Origin: Pirellulales bacterium
GTDB lineage: Bacteria; Planctomycetota; Planctomycetia; Pirellulales; JAICIG01
Direction of reading: 5' to 3'
Assembly: GCA_040901675.1 (NCBI GenBank)
Contig: JBBDYJ010000013.1
Location: 1 to 64,000, forward strand
DNA length: 64,000 bases
This document shows, in pieces, positions 33,776-38,825 of this stretch. Under the pieces are notes generated by a model. That model was not told the origin of the DNA. It did no database searches and saw only the letters and a program-made list of their open reading frames with translations. The position numbers and the translations under genes were made by a program. Each line of letters starts with the position of its first letter. Position 1 is the first letter of the stretch.

Positions 33776-34078
33776 TCAGCCGGGCCCGCCGACGGCCACC
33801 AGGACCATCAGATACGCGCCGACTCCAACGGCCGAAACGGTGATCCAACCGGCGATGAGCATGTTCAGCGGCGAGCCATCGGTGGAGCGGAGCTCGTCGT
33901 AGAGCACGACGGCCCCGGCCAACGACAAGAACCCCAAAAAGCACTCGGTGGCCAAAACGGCCATCAGCCAGGGCGAGCCAAAGAGGATGCCGCACTGCAC
34001 TGCGGTAGCGGTGATCGCGGCAAACAAGAGCCGCAGGCTGAACTGGTACGGGTGTGGCGAAACTGGCTCGGCCGGCAT
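33776..34078 (-). CDS. Small membrane protein (QFSLR motif)
   Basis: YQFSLRLLF followed by 3 hydrophobic segments. Confidence 0.6.
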   Translation of the reverse strand: MPAEPVSPHPYQFSLRLLFAAITATAVQCGILFGSPWLMAVLATECFLGFLSLAGAVVLYDELRSTDGSPLNMLIAGWITVSAVGVGAYLMVLVAVGGPG

Positions 34079-34347
34079 GAATCCATCATAGGGACAAGTG
34101 GCCGAAAAAGGCCATATCTGCCTGGCGATCCGGCGCTGAAAAAATCCAGCCGAAATCTCTTGAGCCGGCCAAAAGGGTCGTCCCGGCACGCAAGCTGCAC
34201 GCGCCGCCCGCCGCCCCGGCTTGAAAGGTGCTCCAGCGTTCTGTCACAATCTACCGTGACGCATGCGGACTGCAAAGTCGTGGTCCGCGCGGGCAATCTC
34301 AGCGGCCGCCAAGCGCGGCACCGGCCGCATTTTCAGGGACCAGCTCA

Positions 34348-35262
34348 GTGGACCAGTGGCGGAAGAATATCGACCGGTACACGGCGGCGCCCATGTTCTT
34401 GGCGGCCCTGCTGTTCCTGGTACTGTTGGCCGGCGCCATCCAGACGATGCGGGACGGAAGGGTGGGCCCGAGCACGGGGGTATTCGTCTGGGCCATGTTG
34501 GCGCTCTACCCATTGTTCTTGATCGAGCTGGCCGCCCATCTGCTCCTGAAAAGTCGATACTGGAAGCAGCACCTGCTGTTTTGCCTGTTTCCTCCCTCGA
34601 GGCTCGGCGGACGCGACCACCAGGCGGGCAATGCGGTGTGGCTCCCCTGGCTGGGATGGGTCCGCGTGGGCCGCGAGTCGCGCAAGCAGGTCGAGCGGGC
34701 CTTCAGCGGGCCGATGCTGGTGATGGCCTTGATGGTGCTGCCGCTGTTGGCGATCGAGTTCTACTGGGCCGAACGGTTCAGCGGACACCCGGCGTTGTTG
34801 TTGCTGCTGGAGACCGGCACCAGCCTGATCTGGCTGGCCTTCACCGTCGAGTTCATCGTGATGATCTCGATCGTCGACAAGAAGCTGCGTTATACCAAGG
34901 AACACTGGATCGACCTGGTGGTGATCTGCCTGCCGCTGCTGGCGTTCGTCCGGGCCTTGCGGCTGGCGCAACTGGCCAGGCTGCAGCAATTGGGACGCAT
35001 GACGCGCATCTACCGTCTCCGCGGCCTTTCGATGCGAGCCTACCGGGGGATCCTGGCTCTGAACGTGCTGCGTCACTTGCTGGGAGTGAACCCGACCCGC
35101 CGGCTGCAGGTGCTCAACGAGCTTTTGGCCGAGAAGGAGTACGAATTGGAGCAACTGCGGGGCGAGATCCGTACCGTCGAAGCCGAGATCGCCCGCAATG
35201 CCAGCCAACCCGTGCAAAAGGCCGAGAGTGAGTTGCCAGCTACCACGGCCGACGGGCGGTAA
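34348..35262 (+). CDS. Ion-transport (voltage-sensor-like) membrane protein lacking a pore domain
   Basis: S2 FxxE, S3 HWIDL, Arg-periodic S4 VRALRLAQLARLQQLGRMTRIYRLR, C-terminal coiled coil; no GYG filter. Confidence 0.75.
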   Translation: MDQWRKNIDRYTAAPMFLAALLFLVLLAGAIQTMRDGRVGPSTGVFVWAMLALYPLFLIELAAHLLLKSRYWKQHLLFCLFPPSRLGGRDHQAGNAVWLPWLGWVRVGRESRKQVERAFSGPMLVMALMVLPLLAIEFYWAERFSGHPALLLLLETGTSLIWLAFTVEFIVMISIVDKKLRYTKEHWIDLVVICLPLLAFVRALRLAQLARLQQLGRMTRIYRLRGLSMRAYRGILALNVLRHLLGVNPTRRLQVLNELLAEKEYELEQLRGEIRTVEAEIARNASQPVQKAESELPATTADGR

Positions 35263-35371
35263 ATAAATTCCGGCGGAATCCAGTCAACCACAGTATGATA
35301 ACGCCGTGTTGAACCCCTACTGTTACGACTACTTCGCCGAGTGGTCGCTCGATCTCAAACTGAGCTGACGC

Positions 35372-35725
35372 ATGCCGCCTGAAATCGACTGGTACTATCA
35401 CCGCCATGGCTGACAGAGCTGCGTCAAGGCGCAAGGGTTCCTTGCGGAGGCTGAGGCTCGGATCGCCGAACAGGTCGACTCTCGCAAAGTAAAGTACAAG
35501 GGCCGCGACGCCTTGAAGGCGCTGGCCGGCGTGGACCAGCTCTGGGTTGCCAAGGGGAAGCGGATGACCCACGTCGACCTCAAAAACGAAAGGCCGCCCG
35601 ACAAGCAACTGGTTGCCCTGCTCACCGGGCCGACCGGAAACCTGCGGGCGCCCGCCATCCGCCGCGGCCGGAAGCTGTTTGTGGGCTTCCATCCGGAAGC
35701 GTACCGCGAAAACCTGCTCGCGTAG
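35372..35725 (+). CDS. ArsC/Spx-like selenoprotein (UxxC), in-frame TGA at 35411-35413
   Basis: MPPEIDWYYHRHG-U-QSCVKA...GPTGNLRAP...LFVGF; same frame as track ORF 35513..35725. Confidence 0.82.
35430..35446 (+). promoter_or_regulatory. Putative bacterial SECIS hairpin
   Basis: CGCAAGG-GTT-CCTTGCG; G-first apical loop 23 nt after the TGA. Confidence 0.7.
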
Positions 35726-35758: not shown

Positions 35759-36988
35759 ATGCCATCTGCGCGCCGCCTTTTCGACGCACTGCGGGCCAAA
35801 GTGCTGGCTCCCAAGGTGAGCGAGCCCGAGCTGGAAGCTTGCCTCCGCCGCATCCATGAGACCCTGCCAGCGCCGGTCTTCTGGCTGCTGGGCAAGGCCC
35901 AGTCCGGCAAGACCTCGCTCATCCGGGCCCTGACGCTCAGCAGCAACACCGAGATCGGCAACGGCTTTCGCCCCTGCACCCGCACGGCGAGGTTGTATCC
36001 GTATCCGAACCAGGAAGAGCACTTTGTCCAGTTCCTGGACACGCGCGGGCTCGGCGAGGTCGACTACGACCCCTCCGAGGACATGCACGTCCTGGAGAAC
36101 CAGGCGCACCTGTTGATTGTGGTCATCAAGGCCCTCGACCACGCCCAGGCGAGCGTTTTGGCGCCGCTGAAGAAGATCCGCAAGGCCCACCCGCGTTGGC
36201 CGGTGATCGTGGTGCAGACGGCGCTGCACGAAGGGTATCCCTCGCCGACCACGCCGCACGTCGTGCCTTACCCCTATGGCGAGCCGCCGTACCCCTCTAG
36301 CGTGCCCACCGACCTGGCCCGCTCGCTTGCCGCCCAGCGCGAGACTTTTGCGGGAATGAATGCACGCTTCGTGCCGGTCGATTTCACGCTGCCCGAAGAT
36401 GGATACGAACCGCTCAACTACGGCCTCGACCAACTCTGGACCGCCATCGAAGAGGCGGTGCCGCTCGGCCTGCGTGGAATCCTGCACGACACGCGCGAAG
36501 CACGCCGGCCGCTGCGCGACGTCTATCTGCGGGCCGCACGCCCGCACGTGCTGTCGTATTCGGTCGCCGCCGGCGCCGCCGCGGCCGGTGTGCCCCTGCC
36601 CGTGATCGACGTGCCGCTGGTGCTGGCCATCCAGGCCAAGCTGTTCCACACCATCGCCTCGATCTACGGCCAGCCGATGAGCAGCCAGCGGATGGCCGAG
36701 ATCGGCAGCACGCTGGGGGTGGGCTTCCTGACCCGGCTGGCCGGCCGCAGTCTGCTGAAGCTGATCCCCGGCTTTGGCTCGGCCGTGTCGGGCCTTTACG
36801 CAGCCGCCAGCACCTACGCTTTGGGCCGGACCCTGTGCGCGTATTTCAGCTATATTCTCGAAGGCGACGTGCCGGACCCAACGGCCCTGCGGCGACTGTA
36901 CGCCCAGGAGTTCCGGGAAGGCAAAGCCCGCTTGGGCCAATACATCAGCAAGGTGGGCAAGCCGCCGCCGGAGCCCGGATCATCGTAG
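35759..36988 (+). CDS. P-loop GTPase with YcjF/DUF697-like C-terminal domain
   Basis: GKAQSGKTS, FLDTRG; AAGVPLPVIDVP...LKLIPGFG...TYALG. Confidence 0.8.
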   Translation: MPSARRLFDALRAKVLAPKVSEPELEACLRRIHETLPAPVFWLLGKAQSGKTSLIRALTLSSNTEIGNGFRPCTRTARLYPYPNQEEHFVQFLDTRGLGEVDYDPSEDMHVLENQAHLLIVVIKALDHAQASVLAPLKKIRKAHPRWPVIVVQTALHEGYPSPTTPHVVPYPYGEPPYPSSVPTDLARSLAAQRETFAGMNARFVPVDFTLPEDGYEPLNYGLDQLWTAIEEAVPLGLRGILHDTREARRPLRDVYLRAARPHVLSYSVAAGAAAAGVPLPVIDVPLVLAIQAKLFHTIASIYGQPMSSQRMAEIGSTLGVGFLTRLAGRSLLKLIPGFGSAVSGLYAAASTYALGRTLCAYFSYILEGDVPDPTALRRLYAQEFREGKARLGQYISKVGKPPPEPGSS

Positions 36989-37124
36989 GCCGGTCGCCGC
37001 CGGGATGGCACGGAAAGGCGTATTAGCTTGCCGCCCGTCATGCGCGAGTGAACAATGGAGCGTGCTGATAGAAACTGACGCCCTCACGCGAAAACTATTG
37101 ACCAGCATCGAGGAGGTCCGCCGG

Positions 37125-38825
37125 ATGTTCATTTTCGAGTTCCGTTGGGAGACGGCCGCCTTTCTGGCCACGTTCGTCGGCGTGGTGATCGGATCGACCG
37201 CGGCCCAGGCCGGTGACGCTAACGCGTTGGCGCGCGAGCTGGTCCAGCAGCACCTGGACGAGATCAGGCCGCTGGAAATCGAGGTCGGCCGCCGCTGGTG
37301 GGATGCCAACGTGACCGGCTCCGACGAGGCCTTCCGGCTCAAGCAGGAAGCCGAGACGCGCTTGGACCTGGCCCTGGCCGACAAGCAGCGTTTCGAGCGG
37401 CTGAAACAGTGCCGCGGCGAAAGTCCCGGCGATCCGATGCTGGCCCGCCAGGTCGAGCTCTTGTATCTGCAGGCCCTGCCGAAACAGGTCGATCCGGAGC
37501 TGCTCAAGCAGTTGATCAGCCGGGCCAATGCGATCGAGATGGCCTTTAACGTCTACCGGGCCAAGGTCGACGGCAAGGAGCTCTCCGACAGCGAGGTCCG
37601 CAAGGTGCTCAAGGAGTCGACCGATTCGGCCCGGCGCAAGGCCGTCTGGGAGGCCGCCAAGAAAGTGGGCTCGGTGGTCCAGCAGGATCTGGCCGCCCTG
37701 GTGCGGCTGCGCAACCGGGCCGCCCGCGAGCTGGGTTTCGACAATTACCACGCGATGCAGTTGGAGATCAACGAGCAGAAGCAGGCCGACGTGCTGAAGC
37801 TGTTCGACGAGCTGGACGAGTTGACCCGCGAACCGTTTCTGGCCGTGAAAAAGGAGATCGACGAGAAGCTGGCCGCCAACTGCAACGTCGCCGTCGAGGA
37901 CCTGCGGCCCTGGCACTACCAGGACCCGTTCTTCCAGGAATCGCCGGCCATCTACGAAACCAGCCTCGATGCGGTCTACGCCGGCGTGGACATCATGGAC
38001 CTTTGCCGGCGGTTCTATGCCGGCATCGGGCTGCCGATCGACGACGTGCTGGCCGTCAGCGACTTGTACGAGAAGCCGGGCAAGAGCCCCCATGCCTTCT
38101 GCACCGACATCGACCGCGAGGGGGACGTGCGCGTGCTGGCGAACGTGGTGCCCAACGAATACTGGATGAGCACCATGCTGCACGAGCTGGGACACGCCGT
38201 CTACTCCAGCAAGAACATTCCCGAAAGCGTTCCCTACGTGCTGCGGACCGATGCCCACATCCTCTGCACCGAGGGCGTCGCCATGATGTTCGAACGATTT
38301 TCCAAGAACGCCGACTGGCTCAAGGAGATGGGCGTCAGCGTGGACGACCCTCAAGCATTCAACGAGACCGGCCGCAAGATGCGCCGCAACCAACTGCTGA
38401 TCTTCTCCCGCTGGTGCCAGGTGATGCTGCGCTTCGAAAAGGAGCTGTACGACAATCCCGACCAGGACCTCAACAAGCTCTGGTGGGACCTGGTCGAAAA
38501 GTACCAGGGAGTCAGGCGGCCCGAGGATCGCGACGCTCCCGACTATGGCAGCAAGATCCACGTGGTCAGCGCGCCGGCCTACTACCACAACTACATGATG
38601 GGCGAGCTGTTTGCCTGCCAGTTGAACCGCAAGATCGTCCGCGACGTGCTCCAGAGCGACGACGCGCCGGACCGGGCGATCTACGTCGGCAATACCCAGG
38701 TGGGCCGCTTCATGCGCGACCGCGTCTTCGCACCGGGCCGATCCCTGCCCTGGAACGAGCTGACGCGCTTCGCCACCGGCGAGCCGCTCAAGGCCGACGC
38801 CTTCGCGGCCGATTTTGCGGACTGA
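37125..38825 (+). CDS. M2/M3-family zinc metallopeptidase (peptidyl-dipeptidase-like), secreted
   Basis: GAGGAGG SD; signal peptide; KSPHAFC, HELGH, TEGVA, KIHVVSAPAYYHNY. Confidence 0.88.
   Translation: MFIFEFRWETAAFLATFVGVVIGSTAAQAGDANALARELVQQHLDEIRPLEIEVGRRWWDANVTGSDEAFRLKQEAETRLDLALADKQRFERLKQCRGESPGDPMLARQVELLYLQALPKQVDPELLKQLISRANAIEMAFNVYRAKVDGKELSDSEVRKVLKESTDSARRKAVWEAAKKVGSVVQQDLAALVRLRNRAARELGFDNYHAMQLEINEQKQADVLKLFDELDELTREPFLAVKKEIDEKLAANCNVAVEDLRPWHYQDPFFQESPAIYETSLDAVYAGVDIMDLCRRFYAGIGLPIDDVLAVSDLYEKPGKSPHAFCTDIDREGDVRVLANVVPNEYWMSTMLHELGHAVYSSKNIPESVPYVLRTDAHILCTEGVAMMFERFSKNADWLKEMGVSVDDPQAFNETGRKMRRNQLLIFSRWCQVMLRFEKELYDNPDQDLNKLWWDLVEKYQGVRRPEDRDAPDYGSKIHVVSAPAYYHNYMMGELFACQLNRKIVRDVLQSDDAPDRAIYVGNTQVGRFMRDRVFAPGRSLPWNELTRFATGEPLKADAFAADFAD

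Follow-up and report, generated by a model that had tools for sequence, protein, structure and literature searches.

A protein of 304 residues, encoded at 34348..35262 on the forward strand of a 64,000-nucleotide stretch of a Pirellulales genome (assembly GCA_040901675.1, contig JBBDYJ010000013.1; the whole stretch is referred to below as the window), is predicted from its sequence to be a pore-less tandem voltage-sensor protein of bacteria that has been mislabelled as a potassium channel. Its second half aligns with the S1–S4 half of ordinary voltage-gated channels, its first half is a degenerate copy of the same unit, and its C-terminal tail has the heptads of a coiled coil. Voltage sensing itself is a prediction, and a non-conducting, stand-alone sensor of membrane potential is the function that we prefer, at about even confidence. 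An original prediction made on the letters alone had proposed a tandem voltage sensor with a coiled coil and no pore, and the peptides quoted in its support (PMFLAALL, LFLIEL and YWKQHLL from one unit, PMLVMALM, AFTVEF and YTKEHWIDL from the other, and LQVLNELLAEKEYELEQLRGEIRTVEAEI) are all present in the translation.

The second unit as a voltage-sensor domain

Conservation was counted over two sets of relatives, a pooled set of 253 members of 250–420 amino acids (median length 320) and a smaller set of 141 members. As true channels we used 25 Ion_trans proteins that have a pore, encoded in other genomes of the phylum and free of internal stops. These were taken from 30 returned loci, leaving out three that abut or are cut at a contig end (L007, L021 and L022) and two more with open frames of 779 and 541 amino acids (L026 and L031).

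When compared with these channels by hhalign, the family profile placed residues 116–218 on S1–S4 with a probability of 94.8% (E 5.5e-8). The C-terminal half alone reached 95.4–95.9%, and the 141-sequence alignment 95.1% (E 3.1e-8, 108 columns). Over all runs the E-values lay between 6e-9 and 5.5e-8 on 99–113 columns, always on S1–S4 only (residues about 115–226). Pfam's Ion_trans model agrees in where it matches. It matched 14 of 32 members at E<=1 and 5 of the 21 members listed at E<=0.01, all of them on profile positions 3–132 of 241, which is the S1–S4 half, and the best member match (E 2.2e-5, 24.2 bits) falls just under the 25-bit cut-off.

The four segments can be assigned in register with those of the channels. 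A pre-S1 helix and S1 occupy residues 109–140 (34672..34767, forward strand, as for all features of the gene), with P122, P132 and the outer acidic residue E137. P132 is found in all 141 members and position 137 is acidic in 132 (Glu in 117, Asp in 15); E137 aligns to the ordinary outer S1 countercharge of pore-bearing channels. S2 (residues 148–175, 34789..34872) carries the charge-transfer centre W162/F165/E168, kept in 140, 141 and 140 members respectively, and its 'AFTVEF' stands on the channels' 'FTiEy'. S3 (residues 187–199, 34906..34944) holds D189 (129 members) and the invariant P196 (141), where 'HWIDL' supplies the S3 Asp and P196 the S3 Pro of the channels. By sequence register S4 spans residues 200–223 (34945..35016), and R202, R205, position 208 and R211 coincide with four S4 arginines of the 25 channels. 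The hydrophobic plug positions L131/P132, F165 and I192/I193 are conserved as well.

The triplet positions of S4 read R202, R205, Q208, R211, Q214, R217, R220 and R223 here, so that six of the eight are basic. The Arg-periodic, S4-like segment of the original prediction is a property of the family: at least five of the eight positions are basic in 244 of the 253 pooled members, and six to eight in 210. Position by position, R205 is kept in 125 of the 141, R220 in 121 and R223 in 133, while Arg or Lys occurs at 208 in 87 and at 211 in 128, and a basic residue at 217 in 130. The alignments thus identify the second unit as homologous to S1–S4 of pore-bearing channels, with charges and countercharges in register. 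Since gating charges, countercharges and plug are all under strong conservation, we infer that the unit presumably still moves charge in the membrane field.

The first unit as a degenerate copy

The two related units were borne out by aligning the family profile with itself: residues 4–93 align with 111–214 at an hhalign probability of 92.2% (E 5.8e-7, score 42.2), against 0.1% for reversed halves and 12.4% (score 23.1) for the best of 30 shuffles in which columns were permuted within 12-column blocks. The alignment pairs P82 with P196, R85 with R205 and R89 with R211, and the motif W-x-x-F-x-x-E stands in both units (W54/F57/E60 and W162/F165/E168). With S1–S3 of true channels the first unit aligns weakly, in register (probability 27–42%).

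S1' (residues 16–35, 34393..34452) begins with a conserved PMF and is seen in hydropathy, in the internal alignment and in an AlphaFold2 helix over residues 2–35 whose predicted local distance difference test (pLDDT) score exceeds 90. S2' (residues 41–66, 34468..34545) carries the copy of the charge-transfer motif, in which position 57 is Phe in 101 and Tyr in 19 of the 141 members and position 60 is acidic in every one (Glu in 132, Asp in 9). S3' with a vestigial S4' (residues 72–90, 34561..34617) is predicted at pLDDT 95–97 to be a re-entrant element that crosses half of the membrane from the cytoplasmic side, formed of short helices 72–80 and 82–87 around P82-P83 and followed by R89-D90; P82 is kept in 140 members and R85 in all 141. 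The unit has no membrane-spanning S4. Instead the chain turns at P82-P83 and enters a beta-hairpin, W98-L-P100-x-L-G103-W104 (residues 96–106, 34633..34665, predicted strands 96–99 and 103–106), in the basic cytoplasmic linker between the units. Few parts of the family are as well conserved as this hairpin (W98 139, P100 140, G103 131 and W104 137 of 141). On this alignment the first unit is an internal duplicate of S1–S3 with a vestigial S4. The tandem architecture originally proposed was read correctly, with a complete S1–S4 in the second unit and, in the first, S1–S3 and only the vestige of an S4.

Absence of a pore and the potassium-channel label

After the Arg-rich segment the protein has only a basic helix and a coiled coil. 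The S5-P-S6 half of the 25 channels aligned with the C-terminal unit at an hhalign probability of 0.2% and with the N-terminal unit at 1.0%. GYG is absent from the translation and occurs anywhere in only 5 of the 253 members. No Pfam or NCBIfam channel model matched above cut-off, and the NCBIfam scan of the protein as a whole returned nothing meaningful. The lack of an S5-P-S6 module and of a GYG filter, both noted originally, thus stands. 'Potassium channel protein' and 'voltage-gated potassium channel' are the source names of some relatives, and can be traced to sub-threshold Ion_trans similarity that is limited to S1–S4. The suspected mis-annotation is therefore real, and the label is wrong.

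A large family without a Pfam model

In a word-indexed search that scored 7,996 candidates, 132 relatives reached E<=0.001. Lengths among the 120 that were listed run from 202 to 420 amino acids, and 119 of the 120 carry no precomputed Pfam domain, the other (P0091) carrying PF00520. Most of the named relatives belong to Planctomycetota (Pirellulales, Blastopirellula, Gimesia), and a few bear the labels Gammaproteobacteria or Proteobacteria. A family profile built from 32 members was then run against 1.84 billion cluster representatives (50% identity clusters). It had 2,051 protein matches at E<=0.001, of which 657 remained at 1e-10 and 362 clusters at E<1e-30. In length the best 150 matches span 215–505 amino acids; most cover nearly the whole profile, and several are N-terminally incomplete. 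The family's Atlas clusters have Planctomycetota or Verrucomicrobiota as their commonest phylum, and none has a common Pfam family. Full-length copies without internal stops were present in 9 of 251 sampled genomes of the phylum, and two further genome matches (E about 1e-11) proved to be the S1–S4 part of true channels. The family is large and conserved, and has no Pfam model of its own.

Pore-bearing or fused forms were not found in these searches. None of the 15 longer members (378–505 amino acids) has an added Pfam domain above cut-off, and a length-restricted search for relatives of 533–2000 amino acids returned none, which is weak evidence. From the profile and length searches it follows that homologues consistently lack a pore, as the original prediction expected, and that the copy in the window is not truncated.

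The C-terminal tail

S4 is followed by an amphipathic basic helix (residues 224–245, 35017..35082), evident from conservation and from the AlphaFold2 models, with conserved R225, R230 and R233 and with Arg at position 243 in most members (His here). In the hhalign alignment it lies beyond S4, at the S4–S5 linker of true channels. Next comes a conserved P249 and a coiled coil (residues 249–284, 35092..35199; predicted helix 249–286) with heptad positions a at 253, 260, 267, 274 and 281 and d at 256, 263, 270 and 277. In the 253 aligned members the a positions and d positions 256, 270 and 277 are 90–100% hydrophobic, and d position 263 is a conserved Lys. Over residues 253–281 the mean hydrophobic fraction is 0.72 at a/d against 0.08 elsewhere, in keeping with the heptad-rich tail described at the outset. 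The coiled coil is set off from S4 by the 25-residue basic helix and by the break at P249, and the protein ends in a variable tail of low confidence (residues 285–304, 35200..35259). A homodimer prediction with two full-length copies (score 0.00, mark 0.42) has no bearing on oligomerisation either way.

Topology and predicted structure

Hydropathy and counts of Lys plus Arg are consistent with an N-terminus on the inside. The loops at residues 36–42 and 141–150 (0.9 and 1.1 basic residues) would be outside, and the linker 67–120 (mean 9.3), the S2–S3 loop (3.3) and everything after S4 inside.

Two AlphaFold2 models were made, one with 32 sequences (pLDDT 85.9) and one with 141 sequences over residues 1–250 (pLDDT 88.7, predicted template modelling score 0.82). 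In the second, each 10-residue block of residues 1–200 lies above 88 and residues 211–250 lie at 55–70. The predicted four-helix bundle superposes on solved sensors over 97–138 residues with a root-mean-square deviation of 2.2–4.0 Å and weak Z scores of 6.7–8.4. When the second model was compared by VIA with 48,161 chains, the best match (Z 8.1) was an unrelated helical protein, whereas eight of the nine rows that aligned more than 100 residues were voltage sensors: SLC9C1, Kv4.2 twice, Kv2.1, NaVEh, Kv3.1, Cav1.1 and Kv1.3, over 106–132 residues at 2.6–3.9 Å and Z 6.7–7.5. Structure comparison against Foldseek's 515 best chains gave S1–S4-bearing channels or SLC9C1 in 38 of 50 rows, and the S1–S4 domains of MlotiK1 and SK were also among the structural matches. 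Both units superpose on the same region of NavMs, its sensor, the C-terminal one with Z 8.0 (104 residues, 2.5 Å) and the N-terminal one with Z 7.9 (87 residues, 2.6 Å). In the 32-sequence model residues 1–99 paired with the NaVEh and Nav1.7-VS2 sensors, while a VIA search with that full-length model was filled by generic helical hairpins. Of the structural check suggested originally, the AlphaFold part gave a four-helix bundle, though with weak Z and an uncertain place for S4, and a Foldseek search of the PDB returned nothing at E<=0.001 for either model. Neither of the two findings named originally as refuting the prediction, pore-bearing homologues or a model that forms no bundle, was seen.

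Searches by sequence reached few solved structures. The protein itself had no match in the PDB at E<=10, and a profile search of the PDB returned mostly coiled-coil proteins, with Kv2.1 only at E 0.14–0.30. Mean-field covariation was of little use, the first run being dominated by gap artefacts and a gap-free run (Meff 119) giving mutually inconsistent aromatic pairs. An alternative S4 register had an hhalign probability of 0.2%; with either register, an arginine-periodic helix lies within the bundle. The predicted structure is consistent support for a voltage-sensor fold, not proof of it.

Comparison with known voltage-sensor proteins

By homology, the closest relatives are the sensor halves of ordinary bacterial voltage-gated channels. 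The sensors of NavMs, NavAb and Kv-type channels have the same F-x-x-E in S2, Asp and Pro in S3 and triplet arginines in S4. The family differs from such channels in having no S5-P-S6 and an extra degenerate unit in front, compared with the planctomycete channels its S3 and S3–S4 turn lack about 6 residues, and its HMMER scores fall under the Ion_trans cut-off. BacNav channels, too, have a coiled coil at their end. Covalent repeats of sensors, one of them with most gating charges lost, are known from TPC and from four-domain Nav and Cav channels. Each of those repeats keeps its pore module, whereas here both units lack one and the first stops short after S3.

In architecture, Hv1 and TMEM266 come nearest, each being a sensor with a coiled coil. 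TMEM266 (HVRP1) is a eukaryotic protein with a single sensor and a coiled coil, and is reportedly a functional, non-conducting voltage sensor. It resembles the family in being a pore-less sensor with a coiled coil and no known enzymatic output, a likeness of architecture, and differs in having one sensor unit and a eukaryotic origin where the family is tandem and bacterial. It may serve as the closest functional analogy to a non-conducting sensor.

Hv1 is likewise a pore-less voltage sensor followed by a cytoplasmic coiled coil. Its signatures, as given in the parts of the literature consulted, are an Asp in S1 that acts as selectivity filter and RxWRxxR in S4 with a conserved Trp (PMC8804609; PMC10377628). 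Neither is found in the family. RxWRxxR was present within residues 199–224 in 0 of the 253 members, and the five commonest residues at position 204, Leu, Ala, Phe, Val and Met, make up 131 of the 141, with no Trp among the five. An Asp or Glu in the S1 core occurs at positions 119–136 in 0 of the 253 and at position 118 in one; E137, which lies three residues before the end of the S1 helix, is the only conserved acid of S1. The coiled coil of Hv1 is continuous with S4, whereas that of the family appears to be separated from it by the basic helix and the conserved Pro, and the family adds a tandem pseudo-sensor. The solved Hv1 chimera 3wkv was touched in the PDB profile search only in its coiled-coil part (E 0.27). 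The family is also bacterial, while Hv channels are, in the sections of the review at hand, reported from eukaryotes only (PMC10377628).

Two further groups came up alongside the family. Giant planctomycete open reading frames of 1244–1424 amino acids (L041:2049-6320 on the reverse strand, L042:323-4207 and L043:44-3775 on the forward strand) have S1–S4 of Ion_trans as their only Pfam match (profile positions 2–123 of 241, within residues 241–465, E 1e-8 to 1e-7), with no pore or other domain, and about 20 such places, with open frames of 1200–1530 amino acids, are among the matches listed for the phylum. They form a second pore-less sensor family in the same phylum, which differs from the present one in scoring above the Pfam cut-off, in being four times longer and in lacking its coiled-coil signature. 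An Atlas cluster of 184-amino-acid hypothetical proteins (50 members, 67% archaeal, 12% with Ion_trans, score 0.82) may be a short sensor-only group outside bacteria, and is offered as a lead only.

Possible functions

The original prediction left the function at a proton channel or a membrane-potential sensor. Of these the sensor fits better and an Hv1-type proton channel is not supported, and we give a non-conducting, stand-alone sensor about an even chance of being right, on the grounds that the plug is intact and that the family has neither Hv1 signature. A bacterium's strongly negative resting potential would keep the S4 arginines in an inward position. Depolarisation would move them outward past the conserved F165 plug, handing them from D189 and E168 to E137, and the basic post-S4 helix would take up this movement together with the coiled coil, which likely joins two or more subunits. 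It may also reach the invariant cytoplasmic PPLR...WLPxLGW module between the units. Rather than a K+ current, the output would most likely be a change of conformation or assembly, to be read by a partner whose gene lies elsewhere.

Several observations weigh against a working voltage sensor. Against Ion_trans, the score of this one sequence is only 9.8 bits (E 0.57, residues 126–222 on profile positions 9–109). The third gating position is Gln here and in 19 of the 141 members, and the sequence register leaves S3 unusually short, D189 and R202 being 13 residues apart. Besides the empty Foldseek search, all Z scores are at or below 8.4, in the chance range for helical bundles, and in the VIA search tie with those of unrelated helical hairpins. 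Both AlphaFold2 models draw residues 187–210 as one unbroken helix and put a low-confidence helix (218–244, pLDDT 55–70) in the place of S4, where the sequence register says 200–223. Voltage-dependent movement of S4 is itself something that we infer from conserved residues, and the lack of an output domain and of a conserved neighbour would equally suit a protein that conducts by itself.

Conduction of protons or other ions through the sensor units, as in Hv1, is in our view unlikely, though the likeliest of the alternatives. The layout of a pore-less sensor with a coiled coil is that of Hv1, and a self-sufficient protein would suit the finding of no conserved partner gene or output domain. 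A variant would use the arginine-poor first unit as the pathway and the adjacent true sensor as its gate, the covalent tandem imitating the Hv1 dimer. In line with this, E60 is always acidic, H64 lies in the same unit (His in 50 and Arg in 41 of the 141), and only two positions of the unit are basic (R85 and R89). The Gln at the third gating position also points this way, as loss of S4 arginines can open an omega pathway, according to the portion of PMC13095418 consulted. Against conduction stand the missing Hv1 signatures, the conserved hydrophobic plug, a coiled coil that does not seem to be continuous with S4, and the match of the Hv1 chimera through its coiled coil only. Proton conduction is thus possible but unsupported, and its boldest form, a first prokaryotic ion pathway made only of voltage-sensor modules, in which a covalent pseudo-dimer conducts protons or small cations through its first unit (E60, H64, R85) under the gating of the complete sensor, is a long shot. 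Also improbable, to a slightly lesser degree than that bold form, is a voltage-insensitive scaffold derived from a sensor, like S1–S4 of TRP, SK and MlotiK1, which might bind lipids or partners through the basic helices and the WLPxLGW module. This would agree with a cytoplasmic linker module that is the most conserved stretch besides S2 and S3, with AlphaFold2 models that lack a canonical S3–S4 hairpin, with the weak Z scores and with the presence of MlotiK1 and SK among the structural matches. Voltage-insensitive S1–S4 domains have, however, typically lost their S4 arginines, whereas 210 of the 253 members here keep six to eight triplet-spaced basic residues, and the retention of F-x-x-E and of the Asp countercharges implies selection on the charge system itself.

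A potassium-channel subunit, in which a tetramer joined through the coiled coil forms its pore from the two N-terminal helices, would agree with the source names of relatives, but we consider it very improbable: the homology of those helices is to S1 and S2 rather than to S5 and S6, they align with the pore half at the negligible probability given above, the acidic loop between them is short here, varies across the family and contains no P-loop, and the protein has no GYG. A truncated remnant of a six-helix channel gene, whether a pseudogene or a mis-called open reading frame, has next to no likelihood. A 112-amino-acid Ion_trans fragment elsewhere in the same genome speaks for it, and against it are the full-length architecture kept in the 362 clusters, the nine full-length genome copies free of internal stops, and near-invariant residues throughout, the tail heptads included. 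For practical purposes this reading is refuted. The fragment (G000:C38:60337-60600, reverse strand, equivalent to L001 1426..1764, reverse strand) is the only above-cut-off Ion_trans match of the window's genome. It covers S1–S3 only (profile positions 9–87), then departs from the channel frame, and is apparently a fragment or frameshift. The 90%-complete assembly therefore shows no intact classical voltage-gated channel.

Gene and locus

The gene has 304 codons and a stop, starts with GTG, and exists in one copy in the window's genome; the family profile matches the window at 34348–35232 (E 1.1e-121). A longer reading from the GTG at 34228 (344 amino acids) is the less likely one, as homologues begin 12–15 residues ahead of 'PMF', which is what a start at 34348 gives, and as a promoter-like site sits within the extension (weak evidence). 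This site, TTGAAA-18-CACAAT with a TG (34221..34250, forward strand), lies about 100 nucleotides 5' of the GTG. It is a consensus match only, one such site being found where 0.2 were expected. The G+C content of the gene (0.59–0.64) is similar to that of its surroundings.

A GFO/IDH/MocA oxidoreductase is encoded upstream on the opposite strand. A candidate gene of 137 amino acids on the reverse strand (33776..34189), with hydrophobic stretches and no Pfam match, takes up most of the space between it and the sensor gene. Downstream, on the forward strand, follow an ArsC-like open reading frame with in-frame TGA, a DUF697 GTPase and an M3/M2-like peptidase. The ArsC/Spx-like frame (35306..35725) has two in-frame TGA codons, the second of them in a G-U-x-x-C motif where the ArsC/Spx family has its redox Cys. 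Its likely start is the ATG just past the first TGA (about 35372), and its C-terminal 70 amino acids weakly match Pfam ArsC (E 5.4e-4, below cut-off). Directly after it, the 409-amino-acid protein at 35759..36988 combines an N-terminal P-loop GTPase (MMR_HSR1, 24.6 bits) with a C-terminal DUF697 membrane domain (E 1.1e-9). The last is a 683-amino-acid reading (36774..38825) with matches to Peptidase_M2, M3 and M32 in its C-terminal 250 residues; because its long N-terminal part runs over the end of the GTPase gene, translation probably starts further downstream.

The selenoprotein said to follow the sensor gene is therefore there as a candidate in the window, but the adjacency is absent at 8 other loci, and inference from an operon, including one with the ArsC-like gene, was rejected on that account. 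None of the window's neighbour genes lies near the sensor gene in the 8 other genomes examined, and the 9 loci compared have nothing in common beyond congeners; a sulfatase occurs at 3 loci and unrelated ABC ATPases near 3. Defence-system models (PADLOC) matched 0 of 4 family members.

Significance

In the portions consulted, a 2023 review of proton channels states that such stand-alone sensor proteins are not seen in bacteria, finds no Hv channels in bacteria or archaea and treats sensor-only proteins as a eukaryotic invention (PMC10377628), and conduction through the sensor is elsewhere treated as emerging in eukarya (PMC13095418, likewise in part). A described bacterial sensor-only family was not found in the full-text literature; subscription journals and about 1.7 million PMC articles lay outside this scope, so a prior description is possible. 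A large, conserved bacterial family of sensor modules with a coiled coil contradicts the first of these statements, as far as the consulted portions of the review go, and makes sensor-only proteins a sizeable bacterial family. The 'potassium channel' labels on its members should go.

The family offers a small bacterial protein for the minimal, pore-free study of voltage sensing, and a test case for signalling by a sensor that has neither channel nor enzyme attached. It is also relevant to the question of whether the sensor module ever existed by itself in prokaryotes. If the pseudo-dimer pathway were true, bacteria would own an Hv-like channel of an origin independent of eukaryotic Hv1, and the family would be a free-standing bacterial sensor module of the type long postulated as the ancestor of six-helix channels.

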